NCBI GenBank assembly: GCA_964553245.1
Contig: CAZKJM010000001.1
Location: forward strand, 362,667-426,666
DNA length: 64,000 nucleotides
DNA from: an uncultured Gammaproteobacteria bacterium
GTDB taxonomy: Bacteria > Patescibacteriota > Microgenomatia > Levybacterales > UBA12049
Direction of reading: 5' to 3'
Shown here one piece after another: positions 34,541-52,478 of this stretch. The notes beneath the pieces are model-generated. The model searched no databases, had not been told where the DNA came from, and worked only from the letters and a program-made list of their open reading frames with translations. Made by a program: the position numbers and the translations under genes. The stretch's first letter is position 1; the number at the start of each line of letters is the position of its first letter.

Positions 34541-35620
34541 TTAACTTGTCTCTGGCTTTTGAGAAAGAGAATCATTCCATAGATCTAATAAATCATCAGG
34601 TCGCTTGGTATGTTCAAATTTCCCTGCTTCTACCATTTTCATAATTTTATATTCAATCCTTCGCCCAATCCAATCAGTAATTTTATCAAGTCCTTGAGGA
34701 AATGGCCTTTTAATCTCGGAACTTGCTTTTTCTAGAATATCTTTTGTATCAGAATCTTCTGTAAAGACCTCTTCAATTTCCAGTATTTTGTTGTTAATTA
34801 TTGACTGTAAAATACTCTCTTGATTATCTGAATAAGCTGCGGGTTCAAGAGGAGGCTTGTATCCTTTTATTCTTCTAGAAAGACCTTTAGCTAGCCCTTT
34901 CTTAGCAAAAACAATATCTAACAAGTCTTTTTTGGGAATATAATCTCTGCCTTCCTGGGTTTTTCTAGTTGCATCTTCTAATTCTGCTGTAAATTCAACA
35001 GAAGGTAAAACATCATATCTATAAGGGGCGCTTTTAAGCTTTTCCCATTGTTTCCTGTAATATTCATCTCTTTTTTCTCTTCGAGTTTGAGCGTCTTCAT
35101 ATAGACTTCTTCCGCCTTTTTGTAAAAATTCTTCCACTTTTGGCCCTACCTCAGCTCGTGCTTCTGTCCATGACATACCCTGGGCAACATAATTACCATA
35201 TATTGCTGCATGCCTAAGCGCTGGGTCTTCTCCCCTAAGCTGTCCTGATAGTAAAGAAGCTTTTTCTGCAGTTGGAGATGCAAAACGATAATCTCCTCCA
35301 GCTCTACGACTAAGAACTGCTAACCCCTGACTTAATATTAACAAGCTTGGGCTATCAACAACTCCATATACTCTACGAAAGTGTTCAGCTTTTTCAATAG
35401 GAATTACTATTCCAAAGGGATCTTTGCTGCTATCCTCTGAGTCAAGTATTAGTGTTCCTAGTCCTCGATTGTCTAAGTCTTTAACTACACCAAGAAATGG
35501 CAAACGTTCTCCTTTTTGTTCTTTTCTGCTAAAAGAGGATTTAATATCTGCTTTTAATTTACCAAATTGTATTTCGCCTGGAGCTTTTGGTCGCTCTGAT
35601 ACACCTTCTCCGACTTCCAT
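34541..35620 (-). CDS. Hypothetical protein (charged, less AT-rich)
   Basis: 359-aa ORF flanked by family-1 (3') and tandem family-2 (5') repeats. Confidence 0.4.
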   Translation of the reverse strand: MEVGEGVSERPKAPGEIQFGKLKADIKSSFSRKEQKGERLPFLGVVKDLDNRGLGTLILDSEDSSKDPFGIVIPIEKAEHFRRVYGVVDSPSLLILSQGLAVLSRRAGGDYRFASPTAEKASLLSGQLRGEDPALRHAAIYGNYVAQGMSWTEARAEVGPKVEEFLQKGGRSLYEDAQTRREKRDEYYRKQWEKLKSAPYRYDVLPSVEFTAELEDATRKTQEGRDYIPKKDLLDIVFAKKGLAKGLSRRIKGYKPPLEPAAYSDNQESILQSIINNKILEIEEVFTEDSDTKDILEKASSEIKRPFPQGLDKITDWIGRRIEYKIMKMVEAGKFEHTKRPDDLLDLWNDSLSQKPETS

Positions 35621-35675
35621 ATATCAAAATTAGTATCTAATATAAAATATATTTTGTCAAACTAAAACTAAACCT

Positions 35676-35727
35676 GAGCTCCGCATGTCGGTCTAGACCC
35701 GTTTCGGGTTATAGTCCTATCTGGCTC
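35676..35727 (-). repeat. Family-2 dispersed repeat copy H1
   Basis: GAGCTCCGCATGTCGGTCTAGACCCGTTTCGGGTTATAGTCCTATCTGGCTC; internal hairpin ACCCG-TTT-CGGGT. Confidence 0.55.
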
Positions 35728-35763
35728 TATGTGTCGGTCAAGAATCATTCAAAGTCATAGTCG
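35728..35763 (-). repeat. Family-2 dispersed repeat copy H2 (tandem, truncated head)
   Basis: TATGTGTCGGTCAAGAATCATTCAAAGTCATAGTCG directly abutting H1. Confidence 0.5.
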
Positions 35764-35834
35764 TTCAGGCCTAAATCTTTGAACAATAAACAACTCTTCA
35801 GTATAATTTAAAATGCTATAATGCGAATAAGTCT

Positions 35835-36176
35835 ATGAAAAATTTCATATCGCTTCTTATTTTAGTTATTTTACTTTCTTTCTTTATAACAACTAATTCT
35901 TCTCCAGTCTCGATTTACATAGGCCCATATATATTTAATGTCCCTTTTTCAATAGCTTTAATACTCCCTCTTTGCATAGGCCTTTTAATTTTTACAGTTG
36001 TTTATTTAGCTAAGGTTAGAAGAATAGAATCTGTAATTAAGCACAATGAAAACGAAATAAATGATCTGCAAAATTCTATTACCCAGTTAAATAAACAAGT
36101 ACATCAATTAAAAATAGAAAATAATAAACTAAAAACCAGACTTGGAGATAAATCATTTGACGATGAATCTATATGA
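35835..36176 (+). CDS. Small membrane protein with C-terminal coiled coil (LapA/DUF1049-like)
   Basis: Two N-terminal TM then heptad-rich LQNSITQLNKQVHQLKIENNKLK. Confidence 0.35.
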   Translation: MKNFISLLILVILLSFFITTNSSPVSIYIGPYIFNVPFSIALILPLCIGLLIFTVVYLAKVRRIESVIKHNENEINDLQNSITQLNKQVHQLKIENNKLKTRLGDKSFDDESI

Positions 36177-36697
36177 TCGAATCCCTGCTTAAGCTTTGGC
36201 GTAAGTTTAATTTCTCTAAAAATTTGCAACTTAGAATTATGCGAACCATAAATGCCCAATTTTTAGTTGGGGTAACAGGAGTTATTTTTAACAATAACAA
36301 TGAGGTCTTGTTGTTTAAACATTCGTATAGATCGATTGCTTGGAGCTTGCCAGGTGGGTACATGAAAGGCAAAGAGCATCCAAAAGAAGCATTAGAAAGA
36401 GAAATTAAGGAAGAGTCTAATTTTACAGTCAGCATAGATTGGCGGATGAAAATAAGAACCGATAGACAAACTTCTAGGCTAGATATTCCTTACATAGGAA
36501 CATTTATTGGAGACTCTTTTAAACCTTCCGCAGAGGTCATTGAATTCGGTTTTTTCTCTTTGGACAACCTGCCACATATAAGAACTGACCAACTTTTTCT
36601 GATAAATAAAGCCTTAGAGGAAAGAAAAATATTCTTTAGTACAAAAAAGCTAGCTCCGATTGAAAAAGCTAAAAAGTCAGAAATTGCTAATTTGTAG
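36173..36697 (+). CDS. NUDIX hydrolase
   Basis: Nudix box GGYMKGKEHPKEALEREIKEESN. Confidence 0.6.
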   Translation: MIESLLKLWRKFNFSKNLQLRIMRTINAQFLVGVTGVIFNNNNEVLLFKHSYRSIAWSLPGGYMKGKEHPKEALEREIKEESNFTVSIDWRMKIRTDRQTSRLDIPYIGTFIGDSFKPSAEVIEFGFFSLDNLPHIRTDQLFLINKALEERKIFFSTKKLAPIEKAKKSEIANL

Positions 36698-36837
36698 TCT
36701 CGCTTATAACTTGCTTTTCGGGATTTAATTTTACACAAAGTAAGTTAAAAATACTCTGAAGCTAAAGTTGTTTAAATCCTATATGCTCTGTGCATCAGTC
36801 AAAAAAATTTTTCGGCTTTAGTTATATTATCCAGGAT

Positions 36838-36893
36838 CTGGCTCTGCATGTCGGTCAAGACCAGTTTAGGGTTATAGTCCTACTCGGCTCGAG
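36838..36893 (+). repeat. Family-2 dispersed repeat copy I at left edge of the less AT-rich island
   Basis: CTGGCTCTGCATGTCGGTCAAGACCAGTTTAGGGTTATAGTCCTACTCGGCTCGAG. Confidence 0.55.
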
Positions 36894-37052
36894 AAATGGG
36901 TACAATTTCGGACAACTGACTGGATAAATTACCTGGAATACCCAGAATTCACAAACAAAGAAGTAAATAGATTCCTTAATGCTTAATCCCCAGGTTGATG
37001 CTGTTTGATTTGTTTCCAATTATCTTATGAATATGTATAATTAAGTTGAGGT

Positions 37053-38861
37053 ATGCCGAATAAATTGTCGTTAAAACTAGACAGGGATAAAATTCTTCGC
37101 AGGATCACCAAGATCTCTATCTTCATCTGGCTGGCATGCATTATAGGCGTCTTTGCAATTATGGGTTATGTTGTGGGTATCAGGAAAGAGCTTTTTGATA
37201 AAGCACCTGATGTCTTCGCCTTCTCTCTCCTCGGGTTAATATTGCTCGGTTGCCTTGCCTTTTTAATCGGTGCAATAGGCATTACCGCACAAATTTTATC
37301 TAAGAGATCCCAGAAGAAACAAAACATCTTTTTATTCCTAATTAAACTGTTCTTTGCGCTAGCCATCCTCCCCCTCTACTTATTGGTCGTTATCATCAAA
37401 CCACTTGAAATCGTAAAGAGACTAAAACAAGAGAAATTAAGAGGTTTATTGAAATCCCTGCGTCCAAAGCTAGTTTTAACGAAATTAGTAGCACTTGTAT
37501 TGGTTTGTGCAATTATTTTACCCATCTGGGTTGTTGGATATGTATCTGTTGGTGCTTTGGCTGCGAACCAGCTAGGTTACATAACAGAGGATATCAATAT
37601 CGTAGGAACTGGTTCTATGTATCCGACTTGGGACAAAGGAACAAAGGGTAAAAGCAACAAGGATCTTGCCAAAGAGATAATTACTACCGCGGGTTTCTTG
37701 CCCTATCCAAACGGCATCGTTATTGGTGGAAAAAGATATCTAGGACATACTCTAGGTAGAGGTGACATTATCACCTGGGAAAATGATGCTACAAGAGAAC
37801 TTACAAGTAGAGACGGAGCAAACCCTGCGGGATTGTTAAAAAGAATCATGGGGCTTCCAGGAGACACAATCGAACTTAGAGACGGTATTGTTTATCTCAA
37901 TGGCGAGCCACAAAAAGAGCCATATATTGCCAAACCGCGCTCAACATTCGGGGAAAAGTTTCTAAAAGAATGTCAGGCAGTAACTGTCCCTCAGGATGCA
38001 ATCTTTGCTATGGGCGACAACCGAAAAGGTAGTTCCGACTCAAGAGAAATTGGCTTTGCTCCAATAAAAGACATCCGCCTAGTCCTTCCTCTGGAAAAAC
38101 AGAAGGGAAAGCTTGATAAGAACTGGCACGACGCAACCAATGACTTATCAGACACAGTAAAACCAACAATAGACAGAAACAGGTTTGTCGAGCTACTTAA
38201 CGAAAAACGCAAAGAGAATGGCGCAACTCCAGTGAAATACGAGCCTAAACTTGATGAATCTGCAAAAATACGAGCAGAATCTTTGTTAAAGAATAACGCT
38301 ACTCAACAACAAGCTTCTTACGATGTCGTTTCAAGTGCAATGTCAAAAGCTGGGTATTGGAACAGCTATGTGTGGGAATGGTCGTTAGAGGGTTATTACA
38401 CTGCTGACGAGTTAGTTGAAGACTATCTCGAAAGAGATTCAACAGATGCTAAAAATGTGTGGTTTGATAAAAAGTTTGACGATGTGGGGATTGCAGAAGT
38501 CCAAGGCAACCTAAACGGATGCCCTACACAGCTTATTGTTGTCCATGCTGCTGGCTACATCCCTCCAAGCTATAAGAAAGAGGATATTGAGTCTTGGAAA
38601 ACAAGCCTATCAAGGCTACGAGAAATTCAGCCAAGCTGGTCAAGTCTCAAAAACAACTCAGGTTTCTACGAAAAAAACAAGGCAGATGTTGATAGAATCA
38701 ATGAGATAATTGGAGTAAGAATTGCTAATATTTCAGTAATCGTTTCCAAGATGGAAGCTAATCAGTGGTTAAGCGCTACCGAACAGAGGATGATCGATCA
38801 GGATAAACCTCTGTATGACGAGCAGGAAGCCATAGCAACCAGGCTTAACAGCCAACATTAA
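37053..38861 (+). CDS. Polytopic membrane protein fused to signal peptidase I (S26) domain and C-terminal CAP/SCP-like domain
   Basis: Approx 5 N-terminal TM; S26 boxes GTGSMYPT (Ser), KRIMGLPGDTIELRDG, GDNRKGSSDSRE; C-terminal ~230 aa with NVWFDKKFDDVGIAEV ... TQLIVVHAAGY reminiscent of CAP/YkwD fold (low confidence for CAP part). Confidence 0.55.
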   Translation: MPNKLSLKLDRDKILRRITKISIFIWLACIIGVFAIMGYVVGIRKELFDKAPDVFAFSLLGLILLGCLAFLIGAIGITAQILSKRSQKKQNIFLFLIKLFFALAILPLYLLVVIIKPLEIVKRLKQEKLRGLLKSLRPKLVLTKLVALVLVCAIILPIWVVGYVSVGALAANQLGYITEDINIVGTGSMYPTWDKGTKGKSNKDLAKEIITTAGFLPYPNGIVIGGKRYLGHTLGRGDIITWENDATRELTSRDGANPAGLLKRIMGLPGDTIELRDGIVYLNGEPQKEPYIAKPRSTFGEKFLKECQAVTVPQDAIFAMGDNRKGSSDSREIGFAPIKDIRLVLPLEKQKGKLDKNWHDATNDLSDTVKPTIDRNRFVELLNEKRKENGATPVKYEPKLDESAKIRAESLLKNNATQQQASYDVVSSAMSKAGYWNSYVWEWSLEGYYTADELVEDYLERDSTDAKNVWFDKKFDDVGIAEVQGNLNGCPTQLIVVHAAGYIPPSYKKEDIESWKTSLSRLREIQPSWSSLKNNSGFYEKNKADVDRINEIIGVRIANISVIVSKMEANQWLSATEQRMIDQDKPLYDEQEAIATRLNSQH

Positions 38862-38862
38862 T

Positions 38863-39045
38863 ATGAGTAAGGATAAAACACTACCAAAGTTACTAACAAT
38901 TAAACAGGCTTCAGAGATCCTTAATGTGCATGTGGAGACTTTGAGGCGTTGGGACAAGCGTGGGAAGCTCAAAGCCATAAGGGTAAACGAGCGCGGTGAC
39001 AGGCGTTACCGCCCAGAGGACATAGAAAAATTAATGAAAATATAA
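38863..39045 (+). CDS. Excisionase/MerR-type HTH (HTH_17) DNA-binding protein
   Basis: 60 aa, LTIKQASEILNVHVETLRRWDKRGKLKAIRVNERGDRRYRPEDIEKL. Confidence 0.55.
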   Translation: MSKDKTLPKLLTIKQASEILNVHVETLRRWDKRGKLKAIRVNERGDRRYRPEDIEKLMKI

Positions 39046-39046
39046 T

Positions 39047-41629
39047 ATGAACAACTTATATCAACAATTAAAATCAGATGTAATTAACTGGAGACAGCAG
39101 GGTTATCCCTCCTCCTATCCCGTCATTGCAACCGTTCTCAACTTCAACAAAAACAACTTTCTAAGACAAGCACAGTTTGAAGCCTTAGAAACTTACTGGT
39201 ATCTGCGCCTAGTTAAGAACACTCCAAATATCTTTGAACTTTATAAAGGGTATTTTCAAGGCAAAGACCTACTCAAAGCCCTGGGAATATCATTATCAGA
39301 AGAAGACTTAACCGATCTTTTGCTAGCTGGCGGCGGACTAGACTCCATTATCGAGAAAGTTAGGACTGATGATACCTTTGTTAAGAAATACAGGCTAGAA
39401 GCCCTTAGAGAAACCCTTACACTTCCATATCCCAGCTACATCCTCGCCCTGGCGATGGGAGCGGGTAAGACAATTCTTGTTGCCTCTATTATAGCCACCG
39501 AGTTTGCTATGGCACTTGAATACCAGGAGAAAGACGGGATCTTTGTCAGGAACTCCCTCGTCTTTGCACCAGGAAAAACAATTCTAGGAGCATTGAAAGA
39601 AATTGCCGATACTCCCTACGACAAAATCCTACCCGCACGATTCTATAAGTCCTTCATCACCAATGTAAAGTTTACCTACACTAGAGATGGCGAAAAGGAT
39701 ATTCCCGTTATTAGAGGCAGTTCCTTTAATGTAATTGTCACTAACACTGAAAAAATCAGACTACAGAAAAATAGCATTCCTAAGTCATTCCTGGGCACAC
39801 AATTGAGCCTAGGATTAGAAGAAGCCAAAGAACTTGTTGCCAACCTGCGCTTACAATCAATCACCTCCCTACCACACTTGGCAGTCTTTTCAGACGAAGC
39901 CCACCACACTTACGGACAAGCTCTCGCCGAGGATCTCAAGCGAGTCCGCCAAACCATCAACTATATAGGCGAGAAAACTAACCTTCTGGCAGTTATTAAC
40001 ACAACAGGCACACCTTACTATCAACGCCAGCTTTTACGAGATGTTATCTACTGGTATGGACTCTCTCAGGGCATTGAAGACGGCATCCTTAAAGAAGTCC
40101 GAGGCAATATTGTCGCCTACAAAGAGGTTTCAGAGGAAGACTTTGTTATCGATATCGTCAAAGACTTTTTCCAGGAATACAAAGATGTGCGAGTTAATAA
40201 CGGCGAATATGCAAAACTGGCAATCTACTTCCCCCAGGTTGACGACCTAGACCAAGCCAAGCCGATTGTTGAGCAAACACTTATCTCTCTGGAACTCGAC
40301 CCATCAATTGTCTTACCAGTCCATAACAAATCTCCAGAAGACATCAAAGATCTTTTTGACAACCGTATCAACGACCCGCACCTACCTTACAGGGTGTTTC
40401 TGCTAGTTAATAAAGGCACTGAAGGATGGAACTGTCTATCTCTTTTTGCGACTGCTCTGGCGAGAAAACTCTCCTCAAGTAATAATTTCGTGCTTCAGGC
40501 AGCCAGCAGATGTTTAAGACAAGTGAACGGCAATACCAAGAAAGCCAAGATTTATCTCTCCAAAGCCAATGTCTCGGTGCTTGATCGCCAGCTGCAGGAA
40601 ACCTTCGGAGAAGGTTTAGATGACCTTAACCGCGCTAAGACCGACACTTATCCTGTTAAAATTACCCTCAGAAAGCTTGAGATTGAACCCGTTGTTATCA
40701 AGAAGCTCATCCAAAAGATTGTTCCCGAAGACGATACTTCTACCGCCTTGAGGGTCGAGAAGCCCAAATCTGACGCTGTAGCGGGGCTTGAGAAAACTAT
40801 TTACACCATGTCCAAGACCCAGAGGAAGGGCGTCCTGGTCGAGGTTGATAGCGAAAAATCAAAACCCAGAGATGTAAAGGTTGATCTATATCAGGCAGCA
40901 GTCCTGCTTGCCCACACTTATCGCCTTGATTCCCTAGAGATCTTCAAACTCCTTACTCCTCTCTATCATGACGGAGAAATGTCAGTTGTCGACCTGGAAC
41001 TTATCCGACTGCAACTAGAAAAACAGGTTATCAGATACAAAGTTACCACTGAAACCGTTGAAGAAGCCCTGGCGCTTATTAAAACCAAAGGCTTTGAGGA
41101 AGAAGTCGAAGATGGCAAGACCTCGTATGTCACCCATATTAGAGTCAATAAGGACAACCTCGAAAAGTATGTTTTAGATACCAATGCCTACAAAAAGAAG
41201 GCTGGTCAAATGCCTTTGTTTGGTTTTCATTACGATCCATACAACTTTGATTCAGAAGACGAGCGTGCCTTCTTTGAGCAAATGTTGGACAAACTCGGCG
41301 AAGACCCAGATAATGTTGAAGATATTTACTTTACAGGAGCGCTGACAGACAGGGAGAAAACCGATTTTGCGTTTGAATATAAAGACAATAAAGGAGACTG
41401 GCACTCGTATACACCTGACTTTTTGATCAGGAAAAAGGATGGCAAGTCCCTTATAGTCGAAGTCAAGGGCAAGCCATACAGGAATGAGGCGGCAGAGAAG
41501 GAAATGAAACAACTAGAGGCGATAAATCCTGATAAAATTAGATATGAACTCCTGCTCTTAGAGGAAGGCGAATCGGTGTTTGGTAAAGTAGCACCAGTCT
41601 TTAATTGGATTTACCAAACCCAAAAATGA
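39047..41629 (+). CDS. res: Type III restriction endonuclease Res-like subunit (SF2 DEAH helicase + C-terminal PD-(D/E)xK nuclease)
   Basis: Walker [17 protein letters not shown] box VFSDEAHH, motif [11 protein letters not shown]-terminal TPDF...LIVEVKGK nuclease motif. Confidence 0.65.
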
Positions 41630-43515
41630 CTATGACAAACGATACAACCAAAAAAATTAAAATCGGCACACCAAACGGCAGACCCATGCTAACCTGGGTG
41701 AACAAGAAACCCCTTGAGTCAGTTACTGGCTATCCCACACAACTTACCGAGAGTTTCGGAGATAAAGAGGCACTTAAAGTGCCTGAATACAACAAGCTAG
41801 AAAAGAACTGGCACAATCTCCTCTTCCACGGCGATAACAAAGAAGTCCTCGCCTCCCTCCTAGAACAAGGATTCAGAGGAAAAGTTGATTTGATCTACAT
41901 CGATCCTCCTTTCGCAAGCAATAAAGATTACATGCGGAATATTGAACTAAGAGGTTTGAAAAACCTGGGACAAATTGAAGAAGATAGTGAATCTATTATT
42001 CAACAAACGATGTATGAGGATATTTGGAAAAGAGATGAGTATTACCAATTCATGTATGAAAGACTAATTTTGTTAAAGGAATTACTTTCAGAAAACGGTG
42101 TTATTTATCTCCACATCGACTACAGAGCCGCTCATTATATGAAAGTTCTTATGGATGAAGTTTTCGGTGAAGATAACTTCCTAAACTCACTTGTCTGGAT
42201 GTTTTCGACAAGAAGTTCCATCAAAACAACCTGGAAAAGAACTCATCACGATATTCTTCTTTACAAGAAACATGGTGATCCTGTTTTTAACTGGAATGAC
42301 GAAATGGTAATTGAACCCCTTTCTGAAAGCACGATCTCAAAATACAAGTATGAAGACGAAGTTGGTAAATATAGGCTAAACGGTAGGAATATCAAAGGAA
42401 GTCCGATTAAGAGCGCAAAAGATGTTGATCCAAAATGGGAAGAAACAAACCCAGAATGGGTGGTAAGAGATTACTTAAGGGGAGGTAAAGTAGCCAGTGA
42501 TTATTTTTTCATCGAGATAGAAAATCAGGCATCAAAAGACAGAACTGACTACGCAACACAAAAACCAGAAGAATTACTTTATAAACTTATTTCTGCTTCC
42601 TCAAAGCCAAATCAACTAGTGTTAGATTGCTTTGTTGGCTCTGGAACAACCTGTGCTGTAGCTCAAAAACTTGGTAGGCGATGGATTGGTGTTGATGTCA
42701 ACAAGGGAGCTATTCAAGTAACCAGTAAGAGATTACAGAAAATTATTAAGGAACAAAACAAAAAACTTCTTGACGGACAAATTAGCAAAGCCTTTGGAAT
42801 CTATAAGGTCAACAATTACGATCTCAGAATTCTAAAAACAGAGGCTAAGGAACTGGCAATTCAGCAATATGGAATCACCAGGACAAAAACAGAGGCTTTC
42901 TTTGATGGCTTACGGGATAGTGGTGAGCTGGTAAAAATCATCGATTTTAATCACCCACTTACGCTCCTAGACCTGCAACTCATCAAAGATGAACTCGACA
43001 AACGACCTGACGAAGACAGGGATATTGTCGTGATCTGTCTAGGCAGAGAAACAAAGGTAGATTCCTGGGTTGAGGAATGGAACAAAAAGCAACCTCACAA
43101 AGACGCGCGCACCAGTCGCCGCATGAGGCAATTCGTCGTCTTTGATCTTAAAGACAAGAACTTTGTCAGTTACGAGCCTTCCAAAGCTGAAGTGGAAATT
43201 ACCAGAGCGGGCAAGAATAAAGCAAAAATTAAAGTTACTTCCTTTATTTCCCCCACTATCATCAAGCGCTTGGAGCTTGAACCAGGATTGCTGCAGAAAA
43301 AAATTCCAGATTTCAGATCAATGATTGATGTCGTCTTGGTTGATACCAACTACGACGGCGAGGTGTTCAAAATTGGCTTCTCTGATGTCCCAGAGAAACA
43401 AAACGATCTGGTCAAAGGAGAATACGAACTTGAGATAACAGAAAAACCAACCAAAGCGGCAGTCAAAATCATTGACATGTTAGGAGAAGAAGTCTTGGTT
43501 ACCAAAGAAGTGTAA
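41605..43515 (+). CDS. mod: Beta-class (motif IV before motif I) DNA methyltransferase, type III Mod-like
   Basis: [13 protein letters not shown]...[18 protein letters not shown] (motif IV DPPF) followed by [26 protein letters not shown] (motif I); 25-nt overlap with res. Confidence 0.65.
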
Positions 43516-43546
43516 CCAGAACTTCTCCGAAAAAATACCTGTAGAC

Positions 43547-43572
43547 GACTGCCCTTAATTGGGCAGTTTTTT
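43547..43572 (+). terminator. Rho-independent terminator after mod
   Basis: CTGCCC-TTAATT-GGGCAG hairpin followed by TTTTTT. Confidence 0.55.
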
Positions 43573-43580
43573 GTAGAAAT

Positions 43581-44126
43581 ATGGCAAAAAATCAAATAAC
43601 AACAAACAGCGACAAACTCATCTTTGAGGAAATCAAGGAACGGCTAAAAGATCAGCTTGATTCGGTAGACAGTATGGATACAAAGGCTGGGATAGTCCTC
43701 GGCTTTAATGGAGCAATTTTAGCTGCCCTACTTAACTCCGACTGGTTTAGAACTCTTCCAATTTACTTCTTAGGTTTCATCTTGTTGGCAATTTGTGTGA
43801 CAACTGGAGTTGCCCTAAAAGCATTTCTCGTCAGAGCTTATAAAAAAGACCCAGACCCCTCGAAGTTAATCGAAGGTTATCAAGGAAAAAAAGAAAATGA
43901 GACACGAGGGCAACTAATCAGAAACTTTGAGAAGTGTTTCAATAACAACAAAGAAATGATTGAAAACAAGAAGAAATATATAAATTGGAGTTTTAAGCTA
44001 TTGGCTTTAACTGTAGGGATCGTTGCATTTGTTGCTCTTATAACAACTTTTATTAACAACGCAAATTATTATTCTCCATGGAGAATGCATAGACAGGAGG
44101 TGACCAAACATGGCAGATTCAGATAA
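43581..44126 (+). CDS. Small membrane protein (2 adjacent TM + third C-terminal TM) with cytoplasmic helices, SLATT/abortive-infection-effector-like topology
   Basis: 181 aa; TM at approx 36-52, 58-82, 136-160; topology only, no sequence motif. Confidence 0.4.
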   Translation: MAKNQITTNSDKLIFEEIKERLKDQLDSVDSMDTKAGIVLGFNGAILAALLNSDWFRTLPIYFLGFILLAICVTTGVALKAFLVRAYKKDPDPSKLIEGYQGKKENETRGQLIRNFEKCFNNNKEMIENKKKYINWSFKLLALTVGIVAFVALITTFINNANYYSPWRMHRQEVTKHGRFR

Positions 44127-44334
44127 CACACAACCACAACCAAGCCAACAAGTTAATACAACACCCACCCCTCCTGCGCCAGAACCAAGCAACATACCGC
44201 CAAGCGCAGATCAAAACCTATCCTCGACAATGAATAAAGGTTTAACTCCAAACTCGAGTATCTCAGCTAAACCCGATGTTTCATTGAATTCGACGAAAAC
44301 TATGAACGAGGACGGCTTGAGGATAACCAAATAA
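44110..44334 (+). CDS. Pro/Thr/Ser-rich low-complexity small ORF, in frame with downstream 1141-aa ORF (separated by TAA-TAT-ATG)
   Basis: 74 aa; may be non-coding or an N-terminal extension if stop is read through/erroneous. Confidence 0.2.
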   Translation: MADSDNTQPQPSQQVNTTPTPPAPEPSNIPPSADQNLSSTMNKGLTPNSSISAKPDVSLNSTKTMNEDGLRITK

Positions 44335-44337
44335 TAT

Positions 44338-47300
44338 ATGATCGATTTATACCAAGGTAAGCTCGATAACCAGAAAATTAAACAAAAAATAAGAAGGCGC
44401 AATTACTCAGGTAATTACAAGCCTTCCGAATCATTGATACAAGATATCATTGAGCAATTTTGGTTTCACGATCATTACAACAGTCTTATATCTGACGAGC
44501 TTTACCTTAGCTTTTTACTTAGTTACCTAAAAAGTACTAAACCTCGCGAATTCAGTCGATACGATTTCTATAAATTCATTTTTGATCAGATCGATAAGGA
44601 ACCTAGTGGAAGAGTAATTTTGCAGCAGATTGCTCTTGCGTTTGAGAAACAGATGAGCGATGCAATGCTACCAGATGACTACACTACCCTCTTACAAGGT
44701 GTTGGGAATATACCAGATGGTAAATTTGACGCTTTGTGGATGGATAAAAATCACCTCGCGAAGATAGGGAAACGGGACGAGAAAGAATTATTCATTTGGG
44801 AACATCACACTTTAACCGAGTTTTTAGTTGCTGAGAACTTAGTTAACCAAGACGAGAAAGTTATTGAGGAATTTCAAAAGTTAGCAATCTTAAAACACGA
44901 GGGCGTAACTGCTTTCAAGCCGTCTTGGTCTGGTGTTTTGCGTTTCCTAATGGAATCTGAAAAGGGTCAGAAGACAATTGTATGGTTTATGGACTTTCTG
45001 GAAAAACATCCAGACAATTTAGATGACAACCTGGCAGAACTATTGGTTTACGAGATAAAAGGTCAAGCCTCAAAGTTGGGACAAAGAGTTTTTAATCTTA
45101 TTTACAATTCTTACTTTGACAAGGTAACCTGGATGCCAATTTGGGCAAGAGTCAGTTTATCAAAGTTCGTTGATAAACAATCATATGAACGATTAAAAAC
45201 CGACATCAAGGTTTGGTCTAATAAGACTGAAACTTTTGTGCGTCGAGGGAATGTCGTTTCAATCGTGGAAGGGTTACTAAAAGATAAAAATAAATTAGTT
45301 AGTGCAAATGAGAGAAAGTTCTGGCTCTCAAAACTAATTGAGTTTGCTAATAGTCCAGACGATGATGGAAATGGCGTTTTACAAAGACATAGCCTGGGAG
45401 CATTAGCTCAATATAAAGACGAGAAGATCATACCCAAAGTAGCACAGAAGTGTTTCAAGGAAACACGAGAATCCCTAGTTAGAGATGAGTTTACAGAATT
45501 CTGTATTGCTACCAATCCAAATTCCGAGGAGGCTATAAACTATTTTATTGAAGGAACTCCAAGTATTTACGCCCGTCATGGACTTTATCAAATCACTTCA
45601 CAAAAAGGAATTGAATATTTCCTTTCCAAGATTGTTGAAGATGAAAACTTTTTGAGGGTATTTTTGGACAAAGAAAGTATCTTTGATGAGGATGGTAGCG
45701 ATAAAAAACTCATTAATAACATTAAAAGACATGTTAACAATAAAGTGATTCCTTTATTGAAGAAACTCATTTATACCGTCATGCGGATAAGTGATTATTA
45801 TCATGAGGGACAATCCAGCTTTCTCCGTCAGATAATCCAATTAATAAACGGGCACGAACCTCGTTATCTATTTGAGATGTTGACAGACATAAAAAATGAA
45901 AACGATGAACAAAAGATAGATAGACTTTTTTGGGATTCAAGAGAACTGCTTGCACTTGCTTTAACCAAAGAAAATGTAAAAGAATACTTTGACTTTCTTA
46001 AGGATTTCCCAGACAGAACAAAAAGGGATGCACAATCTGTCGTTTATAGCGCGAAACGACTGAATGGAGTAGTTGGCGACCATGTCTATCAAGAGGCAGT
46101 TAGGCTGAAACTTGTTAAAAAAATCGACACAAGGCAATCAGAGAAATACTACGAAAAACAGGAGAAACAACGGAAACAAGGTATTTACAAGAGTTTCCTC
46201 AAACAACTCGAGTCAAAGCCAGGACAATATCTAACAAGTGTGTTTGAATACTTCACAAAAAACAAAGAGGAAATCAAAAAACAGTGGAAAGCTAACGATC
46301 AGAAAAAATTATGGAAAATAGCGATAGAAATAGGCATTAGAAAAATCAACCCGCGTGAATTTAAAGTAACACTCTCAAACAGGAAAGAAGGGAATAGCTC
46401 CTTCACCTGGAGCGCACCAGCATCATATTATGGCGATTTACTCAAAGTTGTTCAGGAATTAGCTCCAGAAGAAATTGAAAAATATAGACAAAACATCATT
46501 GATTATATTCCCTACGAATTCGATACAGGCGCGCCAGCAGATTTCATTAAGCAATTAGACGATAAAGATTTGGTATGGGTTAATCAGATAATGAGTGACC
46601 AGAGCGATGATCGTCGTTATCTCATACCACAAACTTATATTTATTTAGTTAGTGAATATGCTAAAAATGGAAGCAAACTTACTACAGTTAAACCAGTTCT
46701 GCAATCCTTTATTACTGATCCAAATATTCGAGACTATGTTCAGCGTTCTGCTCTTGAAGCCATCGCTTTCTTTATTGATAAAACCGACAAAGAAACTAAA
46801 AAATTACTCAAGGATATCTGCGCACATTCCAAAGACCAAGAGCTTGTCGAAATAGCAAATGGTATTTTGATCAGTATTTACGAAGATGAAAAAGCTATTG
46901 ACTGGCGCTTTGCAAAGGTTAAAGAACCGTTGGAGTTTCAAAGAGTCGAGGGGGTTCATTCAGTTGGTCGCGTTGAAGAAGAGTTGATGAGTATGTCCTT
47001 AGCCAAACCATTAATGGAATTAGGTGATGAAAAATACTTACCTAAATTCCTTGACTTATTAGAGTACTCGTTCAAGTTTACTGAAGGGAAAAGCGATAAG
47101 AAATATTGGGAATATGTTAACTACCTTTGGAAAACAGCAACACAGTTTGTAGACGGACTTAAAAGAAAGGGGTCATTTATCCCCCTTATGGAATTAGAAG
47201 GTTGGATCGAGGAACATTCTCAATACGAGAACATTAACTGGCTCGAGGCTCGTATAAAAGAGATTAAAAGAAATTATCTTAATCTCGTACATCCTTTTGA

Positions 47301-47763
47301 TAAATTAATAGACGGGATCGATGAACTCGGTAAGGTCAACTCGCCCACAGCTCAAATCGCTTTGTTTTTGTTTAAGGCACAACTTGTTGAAACAAGATTG
47401 CGAGAACTGATCTTAGGCATTAACTACTTTCTACAGAAGAAAAATAGCAAACTGCCGATTTATAGAAAAATTAACAGCGAAACCAGGAAATGGATAAAAA
47501 ATTTGACACTAAGTAAATTGTGTGAAGAGTTAAATAACTATCAAAGTGCATCGGTAGAAAGGTTAAAGAGTAAGTTAGGGCAATTTGCCCACTCCGAAGG
47601 AAGAAATAGATTTAACCATGAATTGTTTAATCAGACTAAGCCCGTGCAAGAATTAGCAGAAGAAGCAAAACAATATACAAAATTTGCTGAGGAAAGTTTA
47701 GACTTGATCCACAAGGTGTGGGAAGAGATCCTCTCTATTAGCACAAACAACTCGACAAACTAG
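44338..47763 (+). CDS. Large alpha-helical repeat protein with post-NACHT-like motif (FIWEHHTLTEFLVAENLV) but no Walker A; candidate STAND-derived/defence-associated protein
   Basis: 1141 aa; no GxxxxGK[ST] anywhere; motif F-x-H-x-T-x-x-E-F-L-x-A-x-x-L at aa ~150 resembles the helical region following NACHT NTPase; remainder HEAT/TPR-like helical repeats. Confidence 0.45.
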   Translation: MIDLYQGKLDNQKIKQKIRRRNYSGNYKPSESLIQDIIEQFWFHDHYNSLISDELYLSFLLSYLKSTKPREFSRYDFYKFIFDQIDKEPSGRVILQQIALAFEKQMSDAMLPDDYTTLLQGVGNIPDGKFDALWMDKNHLAKIGKRDEKELFIWEHHTLTEFLVAENLVNQDEKVIEEFQKLAILKHEGVTAFKPSWSGVLRFLMESEKGQKTIVWFMDFLEKHPDNLDDNLAELLVYEIKGQASKLGQRVFNLIYNSYFDKVTWMPIWARVSLSKFVDKQSYERLKTDIKVWSNKTETFVRRGNVVSIVEGLLKDKNKLVSANERKFWLSKLIEFANSPDDDGNGVLQRHSLGALAQYKDEKIIPKVAQKCFKETRESLVRDEFTEFCIATNPNSEEAINYFIEGTPSIYARHGLYQITSQKGIEYFLSKIVEDENFLRVFLDKESIFDEDGSDKKLINNIKRHVNNKVIPLLKKLIYTVMRISDYYHEGQSSFLRQIIQLINGHEPRYLFEMLTDIKNENDEQKIDRLFWDSRELLALALTKENVKEYFDFLKDFPDRTKRDAQSVVYSAKRLNGVVGDHVYQEAVRLKLVKKIDTRQSEKYYEKQEKQRKQGIYKSFLKQLESKPGQYLTSVFEYFTKNKEEIKKQWKANDQKKLWKIAIEIGIRKINPREFKVTLSNRKEGNSSFTWSAPASYYGDLLKVVQELAPEEIEKYRQNIIDYIPYEFDTGAPADFIKQLDDKDLVWVNQIMSDQSDDRRYLIPQTYIYLVSEYAKNGSKLTTVKPVLQSFITDPNIRDYVQRSALEAIAFFIDKTDKETKKLLKDICAHSKDQELVEIANGILISIYEDEKAIDWRFAKVKEPLEFQRVEGVHSVGRVEEELMSMSLAKPLMELGDEKYLPKFLDLLEYSFKFTEGKSDKKYWEYVNYLWKTATQFVDGLKRKGSFIPLMELEGWIEEHSQYENINWLEARIKEIKRNYLNLVHPFDKLIDGIDELGKVNSPTAQIALFLFKAQLVETRLRELILGINYFLQKKNSKLPIYRKINSETRKWIKNLTLSKLCEELNNYQSASVERLKSKLGQFAHSEGRNRFNHELFNQTKPVQELAEEAKQYTKFAEESLDLIHKVWEEILSISTNNSTN

Positions 47764-47874
47764 CCACCGTGACCGCGCGTAGCGGCTTGTGTGAGGCTTT
47801 CGTGCCTGGGGTGGCATAAGATTACCTTAATTTAGCTTCGGAAGCCTTGTTGGAGCTGTGTTGAGGAATGTCCG

Positions 47875-48747
47875 TTAAAGCTTATCGATGTCCCAGCCCT
47901 CATTGTCGTAGACGGCAATTTGACCACCTTGAGTAATAGTGAGACTAACCATTGGGTAACGAGTTGACTTGGTTTTGAGACACCAGACACCCTGATCGTT
48001 CTGGTAAGCACCTTCGCGGGTATTGTCAGCATCCCCACATTCCTCAAACTCCTTGGTGAAGGGTTTGGTGTAGTCATACCACTTTACAAAGAAATTACCT
48101 GGTTTTGTGCCTTCGAACTCGTAAGTCATCTTGGTGATATCAACACCAAAAATATCCTTATGCTTAGTCATGAAGTCCTCAGCTACCTTGCGGATCTGCT
48201 CCTTAGTGGTATAGCGGGGAGTATTGTCATATTCAGGCATATTTTCGAACCAACGAGTGCCGTCATCCTTAGTCCCCCAGCGACGCTCGGCTTCACCTAC
48301 CTCAACAATGTAATTTGTCTTAGGATCGATAGTGAAACCAAACCGAGCAGCTTCGTAGTGTTCTGAGGCGGGATTATTATAATCAGTTCCACTCTCGTCA
48401 GGCTTGTTATTAAATCGACTACAGAGGAATTCTACAGGAATATCAGACATACCTAGGAACTCACGGATATTAGCGATAGCTTTTTCCCTTTCAGCAACAG
48501 GGCGCGCAGTTAACAAGCAAAACTTCTGTTGAGCTTCTTGATACTCTTGAGAGTCCTTATTAGGGTTCTTGCTCATAATAGCCAGAAGCTCAGAAACCTC
48601 TTTGTCCTTAGTGTTTTGTTGCACAGTCTGAATGACTTTTGATTTAGTAAGGAAGCGAGGAGCTAGAACAACAACTAGGACAGCAAGCACAGAGAGGAAA
48701 ATAATAGCGGGAAGAATCCGAGATTTATTTTTATGTTTCATTATCAT
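47875..48747 (-). CDS. Membrane-anchored exported protein of unknown function
   Basis: N-terminal TM ILPAIIFLSVLAVLVVVLA then soluble Cys-containing domain. Confidence 0.45.
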   Translation of the reverse strand: MIMKHKNKSRILPAIIFLSVLAVLVVVLAPRFLTKSKVIQTVQQNTKDKEVSELLAIMSKNPNKDSQEYQEAQQKFCLLTARPVAEREKAIANIREFLGMSDIPVEFLCSRFNNKPDESGTDYNNPASEHYEAARFGFTIDPKTNYIVEVGEAERRWGTKDDGTRWFENMPEYDNTPRYTTKEQIRKVAEDFMTKHKDIFGVDITKMTYEFEGTKPGNFFVKWYDYTKPFTKEFEECGDADNTREGAYQNDQGVWCLKTKSTRYPMVSLTITQGGQIAVYDNEGWDIDKL

Positions 48748-48887
48748 TTTTACCTCCTCTTGGTTAAATTAATAACTTTACCCTAGAGGTGTTGCATATT
48801 AACTTCGTTGAGGGGAGATTGTCAAATCAAACCAAAAAGCTCCCCCCAGCGATGACTTGCGTCACCTGCCACCCTTTCGGGAGACAG

Positions 48888-48926
48888 CCTCGTGAGCGCT
48901 CTAGGGAGAGCTTATTGCTCACGAGG
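48888..48926 (+). other. Nested hairpin element: CCTCGTGAGC [GCTCT-AGGG-AGAGC] TTATT GCTCACGAGG
   Basis: 10-bp perfect outer stem plus 5-bp inner stem, in 440-bp intergenic region. Confidence 0.45.
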
Positions 48927-49115
48927 ACTTGTTTAACCATGCCCATTACTGGGTTTAGGTCGTTAGGGATATTTTACCAATCTTAGAGGAAATAAGAAAT
49001 AACAATCAGAAATAACTAAAAGTGGAGATAATGTGAGCAAAAGTTAACTTGACTTTATATCTTTAATTTGTTTGAATGAGAATAGATTTAGGAAGTAAAG
49101 CCTAACGAAACGATC

Positions 49116-49175
49116 GGGGCTGTGGCTTCTGAGTATACGCACTCGCGTGTATTTAGAAGTTACAGCCCCTTTTTT
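49116..49175 (+). terminator. Long imperfect hairpin (GGGGCTGT ... ACAGCCCC with nested TATACGC-ACTC-GCGTGTA) followed by TTTTTT; terminator or attenuator 15 nt upstream of the 49190 ORF
   Basis: Stem 49116-49123 / 49162-49169, T-run 49170-49175. Confidence 0.45.
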
Positions 49176-49189
49176 GTTGCCTAATAACT

Positions 49190-49435
49190 ATGAATACACT
49201 TAATAACGATTATTACTCAACCAGCGACCTCTCACTGGCTACCACCCTCTCTCTTTGGTGTCCTATTGAAGATATTGACCGATCAAATCCCCGTAAGGCT
49301 TTGTTCATTTTCCAAAACACAGGAAAGCTTCAAGAACTTGTTGCTGAGTATTACCGCGACGAAATAAAAATATCGCCACAAGTTTATTTCAACCAATTAC
49401 GAGTCGTGAAGGCGCGGCTCTATGCCAATGGATAA
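49190..49435 (+). CDS. DUF5659-like small protein
   Basis: 81 aa; STSDLSLATTLSLWCPIEDIDRSNPRKALFIFQNT...ELVAEYY pattern recalled for DUF5659 (mobile-element associated). Confidence 0.4.
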   Translation: MNTLNNDYYSTSDLSLATTLSLWCPIEDIDRSNPRKALFIFQNTGKLQELVAEYYRDEIKISPQVYFNQLRVVKARLYANG

Positions 49436-49620
49436 CTATGATAAGCAGAAACCTATTACTAGAACTAAAACAGATCTTGGAAGAAGACTATCGTCTCAAA
49501 TTAACTATCCAGGAAGTGATGGAGATTGCCATGACTTTATTAGGGTACACCGAGACATTACTCAAGATTGAAGGAAAGAAAATGAATACCAGTTAGCAGA
49601 AATCTTAAATAAAAATAACT

Positions 49621-49974
49621 ATGACAATCACAATTAATGACATTACCGTTAAAGTCAAATTGCTTAAATCCGACACCATCTTAGCTCAGGCAACAGTAAT
49701 ACTCTTCGATATTTGGATAGAGCATGGTTGGAAAATCCTAAAGTCAGATCGGCTTCATCCCCAATTACAAGACTATGTTTGGATTCAAGCTCCTAGTTAT
49801 AAATTTATCGGTAAGTGGAACGAAATCGTTTTTATTGACGATAGCAAGCTGTTTGATCAGGTTGTGGAGAAGGTCTACGACGCTTATCACCTTGCCAGAA
49901 GCAAAGATCCTAATTACGGAACCAAAGAACCTGTACCAACAGAGGAGGTAAACCTAGATGACATCAACATATAA
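49621..49974 (+). CDS. SpoVG-like protein
   Basis: ITINDITVKVKLLKSDTILAQATVILFDIWIEHGWKILKSD...VWIQAPSYK resembles SpoVG (ITDVRLR...AIASITLD..FVVHDIRVIDG...FVAMPS). Confidence 0.35.
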   Translation: MTITINDITVKVKLLKSDTILAQATVILFDIWIEHGWKILKSDRLHPQLQDYVWIQAPSYKFIGKWNEIVFIDDSKLFDQVVEKVYDAYHLARSKDPNYGTKEPVPTEEVNLDDINI

Positions 49975-50063
49975 AACGCATAGTAACTATATAGGGATTT
50001 ATAAAGGGACATTTACAGTAACAATTTTTCCCTTTAAGAGGGAATGTATTAAAAAGTAACTAT

Positions 50064-50522
50064 ATGAAGAAATCAATAAAAACATTAAGAAACAAAGATA
50101 AAGAATTACGCGACGAGTTGCCATTTAATGAATTTGTAACAAAGCTCGAAAACGAATCTAATCTCCAATACGCAGTATTTCTACTTTACTGTGAGTCAAA
50201 AAGTATCACCGATCTTACGAGGCAGTTGGCGGTGGAAGTTGGTCACAATGAGGGCAGAATGAGTACGGTTTTACGGCATTTTAAGGCTAATTTATCAAAA
50301 CGAACACTTGAGAGATGGAGCAGTAAATATTTCTGGGTCAAGCGCAAAGACGAACAAGTAAGAATATTCTCCAGAGATCTCGTCAAAATAATACAAGAGG
50401 ATGAGCAAAAGAAAGCGGAGGAATTTATCAGAGCCTTGAGTTCCGTCAATAGATTAATTCCAGAAGATGGAAGGAGATTTAACGGGCGAAACTTCAAGAA
50501 AAATAAGGAGGGCTGCAAATGA
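50064..50522 (+). CDS. Hypothetical phage-like regulatory protein
   Basis: 152 aa, charged, no motif. Confidence 0.35.
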   Translation: MKKSIKTLRNKDKELRDELPFNEFVTKLENESNLQYAVFLLYCESKSITDLTRQLAVEVGHNEGRMSTVLRHFKANLSKRTLERWSSKYFWVKRKDEQVRIFSRDLVKIIQEDEQKKAEEFIRALSSVNRLIPEDGRRFNGRNFKKNKEGCK

Positions 50523-50625
50523 CGGTAAAACTGCTCCATATTGACGCCAAAATGACTCCAACTATTGGGGTCTTTAGCTTGATATTCCTTAAATGTTTGT
50601 TTATGTTGTGTGTTGCAAAATAACT

Positions 50626-52233: not shown

Positions 52234-52478
52234 AGTTACACTTAATCTCCGATTTTCATCGAAGCGTGGACTATCTCATAGCCATATCTTCTTCAGATTT
52301 AGGCTCCAGGCGTATAGTCTCTGAACCTTCCCCGATATAATCGAGACTTGGCTGCGGATTACCTCGCATTTCTGCAGGGGCTTCCCGACAATTAACCCAG
52401 TTTTCACTCCGATGTTTCCATCGAAGGCTGCAATTTCAAATACTACAGCTTCCTGCTCTACCATTGAGCTACAGGGGA
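52198..52478 (-). tRNA. tRNA-Asn(GUU) interrupted by a ~206-nt group I intron in the anticodon loop (exons complement 52445-52478 and 52198-52238, CCA encoded)
   Basis: Exons give UCCCCUG-UA-GCUC-AAUGGUA-GAGC-A-GGAAG-CUGU/UAA-CUUCA-AGGUU-CGAGG-UUCGAAU-CCUCG-CGGGGGA-G-CCA; U1:A72, G73 and loop CUGUUAA as in bacterial tRNA-Asn. Confidence 0.7.
52239..52444 (-). ncRNA. Group I self-splicing intron (no ORF)
   Basis: Contains AAUCCGCAGC (Q), GUUCAGAGACUA (R), AAGAUAU..AUAGUCC (S), P-like AAAUGCGAGGUAA; P1 pairing GAAGCUGU with GCAG(C)CUUC gives U.G at 5' splice site; last intron nt is G. Confidence 0.7.

Follow-up and report, generated by a model that had tools for sequence, protein, structure and literature searches.

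A signal peptidase-CAP gene, a helix-turn-helix gene, and a type III-like restriction-modification pair at the cargo slot of a Microgenomates integrative element

Here, we report the analysis of a four-gene unit in a 64,000-nucleotide stretch of DNA (the window; GenBank assembly GCA_964553245.1, contig CAZKJM010000001.1, positions 362,667 to 426,666 of the forward strand) from a Microgenomates bacterium, a member of the candidate phyla radiation (CPR). An earlier note, made from the sequence alone, had described four tightly packed open reading frames at window positions 37053 to 43515, and their coordinates, spacing, and domains were all borne out, with one adjustment to the spacing given below. 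The genes lie on the plus strand inside a 15.3-kb integrated island and encode a membrane signal peptidase I with a CAP domain, a small helix-turn-helix (HTH) protein, a helicase-nuclease (Res), and a DNA methyltransferase (Mod), the last two forming a restriction-modification (R-M) pair. Labels of the form L002 or L008 denote related loci and elements that were compared with the window.

Genes of the unit

Gene 1 (37053 to 38861) encodes a 602-amino-acid (aa) membrane protein in which a signal peptidase I is joined to a CAP domain and, at the C terminus, to a three-helix bundle; gene 2 (38863 to 39045) encodes a 60-aa MerR-type winged HTH, which is the leader gene of the cargo slot described below and its left recombination anchor; gene 3 (39047 to 41629) encodes the 860-aa Res, with a superfamily 2 (SF2) DEAH helicase and a C-terminal PD-(D/E)xK nuclease; and gene 4 (41626 to 43515; 629 aa from the ATG at 41626) encodes Mod, a beta-class N6/N4 DNA methyltransferase of the type III kind. 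The sequence TAATATG is found at both the gene 1/2 and the gene 2/3 junctions. Both 1-nt gaps of the earlier note stood; its 25-nt res/mod overlap requires the longest open reading frame of gene 4 (41605 to 43515, 636 aa), which starts from a TTG at 41605. Since the N termini of Mod homologues read M..KIKITPxKGRPML, a start at 41626 or 41632 is favored, and the ATG at 41626 shares the sequence ATGA with the res stop codon, so that the true overlap is probably 4 nt and still tight. A single promoter-like site (10/12 matches) precedes the unit, in the conserved cargo promoter/leader (37013 to 37052, plus strand; TTTCCA-17-TATAAT at 37013 to 37041, then TTGAGGT ATG), and an intrinsic-terminator-like hairpin with a T-run (43547 to 43575, plus strand) closes it. 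The four genes are one co-directional and probably co-transcribed unit.

Gene 1 matched Peptidase_S26 (1.3e-24) and scored 87.2 bits against the signal peptidase I model TIGR02227 (cut-off, 47), in agreement with the complete S26 core that had been recognized from its Ser in GTGSMYPT and its Lys in KRIMGLPGD. The catalytic boxes are GTGSMYPT at residue 185, KRIMGLPGD at 263, and GDNRKGSSDSR at 321; boxes B, D, and E are intact and near-invariant among 35 homologues; and the Ser/Lys dyad, box E, and the family-model score place the protein in signal peptidase I (S26A). The C-terminal CAP/SCP-like domain suggested previously is borderline by sequence (Pfam, 20.0 bits versus 21.1; YkwD, 1.3e-6) and supported by an AlphaFold model of residues 350 to 602 (predicted local distance difference test [pLDDT], 87). 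This model matched 4d53, 4h0a, 4ifa, PR-1, and GAPR-1 in the PDB (probability of 1.0, E values down to 1e-4), with the bacterial CAP/SCP proteins (4d53, 4h0a, and 4ifa) among the top matches, and the CAP domain plus helical bundle gave weaker matches to enterococcal PrgA (6z9l and 6z9k; E value, ~1e-2). At the level of the model, the presence of a CAP fold followed by a confidently predicted three-helix bundle was confirmed. The approximately five transmembrane (TM) helices of the earlier note were not recovered, as four hydrophobic segments are seen in the hydropathy profile; their loop charges (+5, +1, +4, and +7) fit a catalytic domain outside the cell only with the third segment re-entrant. 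The protein would most likely be an active membrane-bound signal peptidase I that displays its CAP domain outside the cell. No second copy of the peptidase was found within the 64-kb window.

The HTH protein matched MerR_1 (8e-14), HTH_17 (5e-12), and BldC; it also passed the excisionase family model TIGR01764 (35.7 bits versus a cut-off of 28.8) and matched phrog_66 of PHROGs ("excisionase and transcriptional regulator"), and its best match in the defense libraries was PADLOC mad1 (8e-15). An excisionase/MerR-type HTH in the place of an R-M controller (C) protein had been proposed, of which the HTH class and the position hold and a cassette-specific C protein does not: the protein is of the MerR/HTH_17 and not the XRE-type HTH_3 class, and it also precedes cargo other than R-M genes (a HEAT-repeat protein in L045, different genes in L079 and L095). 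An HTH_17 protein adjoining a Res homologue in WOR-3 is unrelated to that of the window, and therefore the HTH and the Res family do not move together. As a conserved leader gene, the HTH belongs to the cargo slot of this family of elements. Its C terminus varies with the cassette, and the HTH of L009 is a chimera of two types, which points to recombination within the HTH gene. Judged from sequence, the role we prefer is that of a regulator of the leader; the HTH would bind the conserved leader and set the expression of whatever cargo comes next. GTATAC-like motifs lie at the −35 and −10 positions of the leader (AGTATACC...N19...GTATAAT or GTATACT), before the peptidase in L002, L009, and L008 and before the HTH in L045 and L079, and these are a possible operator for a MerR-type HTH.

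Res carries GAGKT at residue 138, DEAHH at 283, TGTP at 320, QAASRCLRQ at 484, and PDF...VEVKG at 790 to 808, and the SF2 motifs and PDF...VEVKG are invariant or near-invariant in 24 homologues. Its family matches were to ResIII (1.4e-5) and a TnsA-like family (1.6e-5), with weak matches to PADLOC REase_III (2.4e-5 and 1.7e-3), and it has the SF2 motor and C-terminal PD-(D/E)xK nuclease of type III enzymes. Mod matched N6_N4_Mtase (1.9e-44), PADLOC MTase_III (1.2e-61), and, as its best PDB match, EcoP15I Mod (3.8e-20); DPPF at residue 93 precedes FVGSGTT at 336, which is the beta-class order, and a target recognition domain (TRD; approximately residues 160 to 320) lies between motifs IV and I, as in type III Mod proteins of the beta-class N6/N4 group. 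Motifs and family matches thus agree with the DEAH helicase plus PD-ExK Res and the beta-class DPPF Mod of the earlier note. Between the window and L008, the Mod TRD is 20 to 58% identical and the rest of the protein is 88 to 97% identical, a divergence such as specificity turnover would be expected to produce.

The canonical mod-then-res order was not found, with res standing first in the window, L008, L018, L021, L033, L034, and L035. This reversal of the type III order, which had already been pointed out, extends to three unrelated lineages: the family of the 860-aa Res (Res860; 57 to 61% identity) occurs in Dehalococcoidia, in WOR-3, and in another lineage as res, zero to two inserted genes, and mod, with no peptidase, and res-then-mod is its native order. 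Small genes between or beside res and mod (L033, L035, L008, and L021) encode HEPN plus nucleotidyltransferase, HEPN alone, DUF3800, and DUF6978 plus DUF1828, which suggests toxin-antitoxin-like modules lodged inside the R-M operon. Mod would methylate an asymmetric site, and Res and Mod together would cut unmodified incoming DNA via the SF2 ATPase and the PD-ExK nuclease. The pair appears to be type III-like and to work like type III, with the membership of Res in type III unproven; as an R-M cassette, it is ordinary in mechanism and belongs to a widespread family.

Cargo slot and origin of the unit

In the element family, the proposed backbone order is promoter/leader, 60-aa MerR-type HTH, cargo slot, 100-nt sequence, p290, LOOT RNA, small genes, and recombinase; the element would have been inserted by the large serine recombinase at the 3′ end of tRNA-Asn, with the four-gene unit as the first operon inside. 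DNA homology between the window and related loci runs from ~37030 to ~39005, within the HTH gene, and resumes at 47767, and the contents between these points differ. After the HTH, the window holds Res860, Mod, a PycTM-like protein, a 74-aa open reading frame, and a 1141-aa HEAT-repeat protein (HEAT1141); L008 and L018 hold HEPN, Res860, and Mod, plus AAA_15/OLD-TOPRIM; L021 holds Res860, DUF3800, and Mod; L020 holds a 279-aa protein, Mod555, Res772, and a DUF4365 protein; L002, L009, and L014 hold a Ppl-like ATPase with a type II methyltransferase and a type II restriction endonuclease; and L005, L006, and L010 hold Mod518 and Res770, in canonical order, with a Ppl-like ATPase. L020 and L021 have the peptidase and upstream genes in common and carry different R-M cassettes. 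The right border of the slot is a 100-nt non-coding sequence (47768 to 47868) conserved at the DNA level in seven loci with differing neighbor genes (L005, L008, L009, L018, L020, and L021 among them), in which RNAalifold found no covariation. Conserved flanks, variable defense content, and an integrase with att sites are the features of a defense hotspot, and cargo would be swapped by recombination between the HTH gene and the 100-nt right border.

The peptidase has a distribution of its own. Full-length homologues (~600 aa, 55 to 96% identity) were found in metagenome-assembled genomes named Woese-, Pace-, Shapiro-, Collier-, and Daviesbacteria, and their identities do not track host relatedness, which indicates that the peptidase moves horizontally: relative to the window, identities are 93% and 57% for host genes and 66% for the peptidase in L017, against 63% and 43% for those host genes and 96% for the peptidase in L008. 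Approximately 11 of ~18 informative genome loci have the peptidase without the HTH or R-M genes (L011 to L013, L015 to L017, L019, L023, L026, L028, and L030); in two of these (L026 and L028), a peptidase of 48% identity lies in a chromosomal context between thioredoxin-reductase-like (trxB) and DsbA-like genes. In L011, a separate 250-aa zinc-ribbon plus CAP protein is encoded at 13019 to 13771, 1.2 kb downstream of the peptidase-CAP homologue. Conversely, the HTH heads cargo without the peptidase in three elements (L045, L079, and L095). The leader GTATAATTAAGTTGAGGTATG precedes the peptidase in L005, L002, L009, and L021 and directly precedes the HTH in the peptidase-less L045 and L079, for which the simplest reading is that the peptidase was inserted between the cargo promoter and the HTH. 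This insertion would have taken place in one sub-lineage, and it is only suggestive that the peptidase took over the first HTH codons (MPKK). The peptidase-CAP protein would then be expressed together with the defense cargo while the element is integrated.

Because the R-M pair occurs without the peptidase, the peptidase occurs without the HTH and R-M genes, and the leader joins the HTH directly, we read the four genes as an evolutionary mosaic and not as a four-part defense system (probability of about 0.75): a swappable R-M cassette in the cargo slot of an integrative element, with the peptidase-CAP gene as an independent passenger. Several points weigh against this account or its parts. The case for co-transcription consists of the gene spacing and one site each of the promoter-like and terminator-like kinds; the topology of gene 1 is ambiguous, given its four hydrophobic segments and their loop charges; Res had no sequence or profile match to any solved type III Res in a PDB search, and its AlphaFold model is poor (pLDDT, 61) and matches generic SF2 helicases only. 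In all sampled loci, the HTH has cargo 1 to 2 nt downstream, and the peptidase is 57 to 96% conserved within the HTH frame, so a functional link to defense is possible.

In a first and less probable alternative, the peptidase-CAP protein would itself be defense or exclusion cargo that, at the cell surface, processes or blocks a receptor or adhesin against phages or rival elements, alongside the R-M pair and not through it. The peptidase belongs to the accessory part of an element that otherwise carries defense cargo, stands behind the same leader as that cargo, moves horizontally, and keeps its catalytic residues under conservation, and its CAP domain and helical bundle match PrgA (6z9l and 6z9k) among CAP structures. 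PrgA surface exclusion depends on its protease domain (bioRxiv 10.1101/2020.06.18.156562). The PrgA structure matches are weak (E value, ~1e-2), however; the peptidase-CAP protein had no PADLOC match; and the homologues of 48% identity in the trxB/dsbA-like context resemble housekeeping LepB. A more specific version is more doubtful still, in which the peptidase/CAP/helical-bundle protein is mobile CPR cargo that would serve as a surface exclusion or anti-phage factor, remodeling a receptor, pilus, or adhesin proteolytically and expressed from the HTH-controlled leader. If true, it would place an envelope-level defense layer in front of the R-M layer on a tiny host cell.

A second alternative concerns the HTH, which would serve the serine recombinase as its excision factor (recombination directionality factor) and would not regulate the cargo. 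The score above the TIGR01764 cut-off (35.7 versus 28.8 bits) and the phrog_66 match are in its favor, as are the 78 to 81% identity of the HTH in elements whose recombinases are only 58 to 65% identical and the arrangement of the excised circle, which would place the HTH just downstream of the recombinase gene. We nevertheless regard it as improbable, as the HTH is translationally coupled to defense genes that should be on when the element is integrated, when an excision factor should be off; it is missing from some elements of the family, e.g., L117; and its best defense match, mad1, has been described as a widespread regulator whose deletion has little effect. The preferred role remains that of a regulator of the leader.

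The earlier note had raised the possibility of a protease coupled to restriction in a distinct four-gene defense configuration, and synteny did not bear this out. In such a system, the membrane peptidase would be coupled to the R-M pair and act as a sensor or as an effector of abortive infection, and the tight gene spacing and the occurrence of the peptidase-HTH-R-M arrangement in at least seven species-level genome loci speak for it. Unrelated defense systems replace the R-M genes behind the same peptidase-HTH pair, however, and the same Res-Mod family stands without the peptidase in other phyla (Dehalococcoidia, WOR-3, and another lineage); with HTH-cargo arrangements lacking the peptidase (L045, L079, and L095) and the peptidase also found alone, a single integrated system is very unlikely. 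The suggestion that gene 1 is the TraF-like peptidase of a conjugative element was rejected as next to impossible, because its weak match to TIGR02771 (TraF_Ti; 6e-6) scored 25.9 bits versus a cut-off of 100.25, whereas TIGR02227 was passed, and the 15.3-kb island contains no relaxase, coupling protein, or type IV secretion system genes.

Ends and backbone of the element

The island extends from 36891 to 52203, with gene 1 starting 162 nt inside attL, and its genes have GC contents of 0.36 to 0.44 versus roughly 0.26 to 0.35 in most of the DNA on either side. Long att repeats were sought among direct repeats, which yielded only 46-nt units (D1), and the ends were placed via the split C terminus of the recombinase instead. 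The left end, attL, lies between 36890 and 36891, with its core GGCTC (36886 to 36890) bordered by the host flank (a 46-nt D1 unit) on the left and island DNA on the right; attR lies between 52203 and 52204, with its core at 52195 to 52203. The attL junction reads ...CTACTCGGCTC followed by GAGAAATGG and matches the attR core ATCTGGCTC, the core common to both being (T)GGCTC, and DNA homology to L008/L018 begins at 36883 to 36886.

The large serine recombinase (50593 to 52233, plus strand) has Resolvase, Recombinase, and Zn_ribbon_recom domains and matched the phrog_95 integrase (5e-75). Its C terminus reads ...RPIWL up to the junction and PREDSNLEP beyond it, the last 9 codons coming from the tRNA gene after integration. 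Its displaced last 31 codons lie at the opposite end of the island (36891 to 36986, plus strand) and encode EKWVQFRTTDWINYLEYPEFTNKEVNRFLNA up to the stop codon, a peptide 93.5% identical to the C terminus of the open reading frame just upstream of the L008 peptidase (...RQIWLEKWVQF...). Since integration splits the C terminus, which is whole in a homologue (P0256, a metagenome protein that clusters with the window recombinase at 90%, with the tail ...RPIWLESWDSYRKVDWINEIEYPEF...), attP lies inside the recombinase gene, and integration swaps the last 31 codons of the recombinase for 9 codons read from the tRNA gene. The predicted junctions are ...CGTCCCATCTGGCTCGAGAAATGGG... for attP and ...GTCCTACTCGGCTCCCCCGCGAGG... 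for the empty attB.

The target is a tRNA-Asn(GUU) gene on the minus strand (52198 to 52478) with a group I intron at 52247 to 52454 (RF00028, 76 bits), which was identified with exon matches in related loci and is overlapped by the 3′ end of the recombinase gene. ARAGORN reported no tRNA in the whole window and a tRNA-Asn(GTT) at the corresponding position in L044, L045, and L060, showing the same target in relatives. A group I intron was also seen in the tRNA-Asn genes of L050, L107, and L117, and most related loci have an intron-less tRNA. The D1 unit (46 to 50 nt) has copies at 35678 to 35727, 35724 to 35773, and 36841 to 36890, all three of which have the GGCTC of the att core at their end; a tandem pair lies upstream of LapA-like and NUDIX genes, the third abuts attL, and another D1 copy lies ~1 kb from the same tRNA in L017. 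Rfam returned nothing in 35500 to 37100, and D1 had no Rfam match; the units may be scars left by earlier insertions or repeats of the flank that resemble attB.

To the right of the four-gene unit, the rest of the window cargo (43581 to 47763, plus strand) comprises the PycTM-like protein (181 aa), the 74-aa open reading frame, and the 1141-aa HEAT-repeat protein. The 181-aa protein has two TM segments and matched PADLOC PycTM (1.4e-11; Pycsar effector models), with no cyclase nearby, and a homologue of the HEAT-repeat protein (72% identity) directly follows the HTH in L045; the three genes are a candidate uncharacterized defense system. Beyond the right border are the genes for p290 (47875 to 48747, minus strand), an N-terminally anchored backbone protein conserved in the element family, and, directly upstream of it, LOOT RNA (RF03000; 48851 to 48961, minus strand; 77.8 bits versus a gathering threshold of 46.4). 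LOOT RNA, of which a literature search found no description, is at the same position in six of nine related elements and appears to be a backbone component of this Microgenomates integrative-element family. A metagenome scan with the recombinase yielded 80 elements with a common backbone of p290, g65, g81, g52, g117, g152, and the recombinase. The element is also present in complete genomes, e.g., CP055308.1. Prophage status was not supported: neither the peptidase nor p290 had relatives in IMG/VR scans, and in L021 and L018 the genes that precede the peptidase were host-like or methyltransferase genes in PHROGs, with no phage structural genes. GpA terminase was reached only in L002-type relatives, and g152 had a weak TerS match (phrog_6299, 3e-4).

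Relation to known systems and significance

Type III R-M systems (EcoP15I and EcoP1I) likewise have two subunits, namely a beta-class Mod with a central TRD, whose nearest solved relative is EcoP15I Mod in the case of the window, and a Res with an N-terminal SF2 DEAH motor and a C-terminal PD-(D/E)xK nuclease. They differ from the window family in gene order, which in the latter is res and then mod, often with HEPN/minimal nucleotidyltransferase, DUF3800, or other inserts between, and the window Res is too divergent to match solved type III Res proteins by sequence or profile. Type III systems are further characterized by hemimethylation at an asymmetric site and by cleavage that takes ATP and a pair of sites in inverse orientation. 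In MADS, as in the window, a small HTH protein (mad1; PADLOC, 8e-15) is the first gene product of a methylation-based defense operon, and mad1 is reported to be homologous to widespread regulators and not to be required for defense. The window cargo was not assigned to MADS, as the mandatory MAD6, MAD7, and MAD8 had no match in it and mad1 was the only component matched by PADLOC.

P2/P4 hotspots, the cargo of phage-inducible chromosomal islands, and the hotspots of SXT integrative and conjugative elements have conserved flanks around a slot with interchangeable defense systems. Like such integrative-element and satellite hotspots, the window element is small (10 to 15 kb), targets a tRNA gene, and has no structural genes and a weak TerS-like g152. 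Unlike them, it resides in a CPR host (Microgenomates), it uses as its integrase a large serine recombinase with attP spanned by the 3′ end of the recombinase gene itself, a MerR-type HTH gene under a conserved leader flanks its slot on the left, and its backbone carries LOOT RNA.

PrgA of the Enterococcus plasmid pCF10 resembles the gene 1 product in being a surface protein of a mobile element with a CAP domain on long helices and documented protease-dependent surface exclusion; it differs in its LPXTG anchor, its 40-nm stalk, and its lack of an S26 peptidase domain, and the structural match is weak (E value, ~1e-2). SipP of Bacillus subtilis (natto) plasmids is a type I signal peptidase encoded as an accessory gene on a mobile element; it is a short single-TM enzyme and, unlike gene 1, has no CAP domain, multi-segment N terminus, or defense neighborhood.

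The unit is not a new protease-coupled restriction mechanism. What is newly delineated is a family of small tRNA-Asn-targeting integrative elements in Microgenomates with a slot that is headed by a promoter and an HTH gene and collects defense systems, and with it LOOT RNA gains a genomic home. The cargo slot is a concrete place to seek CPR-specific defense genes, with the pair of PycTM-like protein and HEAT1141 and several unannotated cargo proteins as candidates, and the horizontally moving signal peptidase-CAP fusion offers a testable cell-surface role in episymbiotic bacteria.

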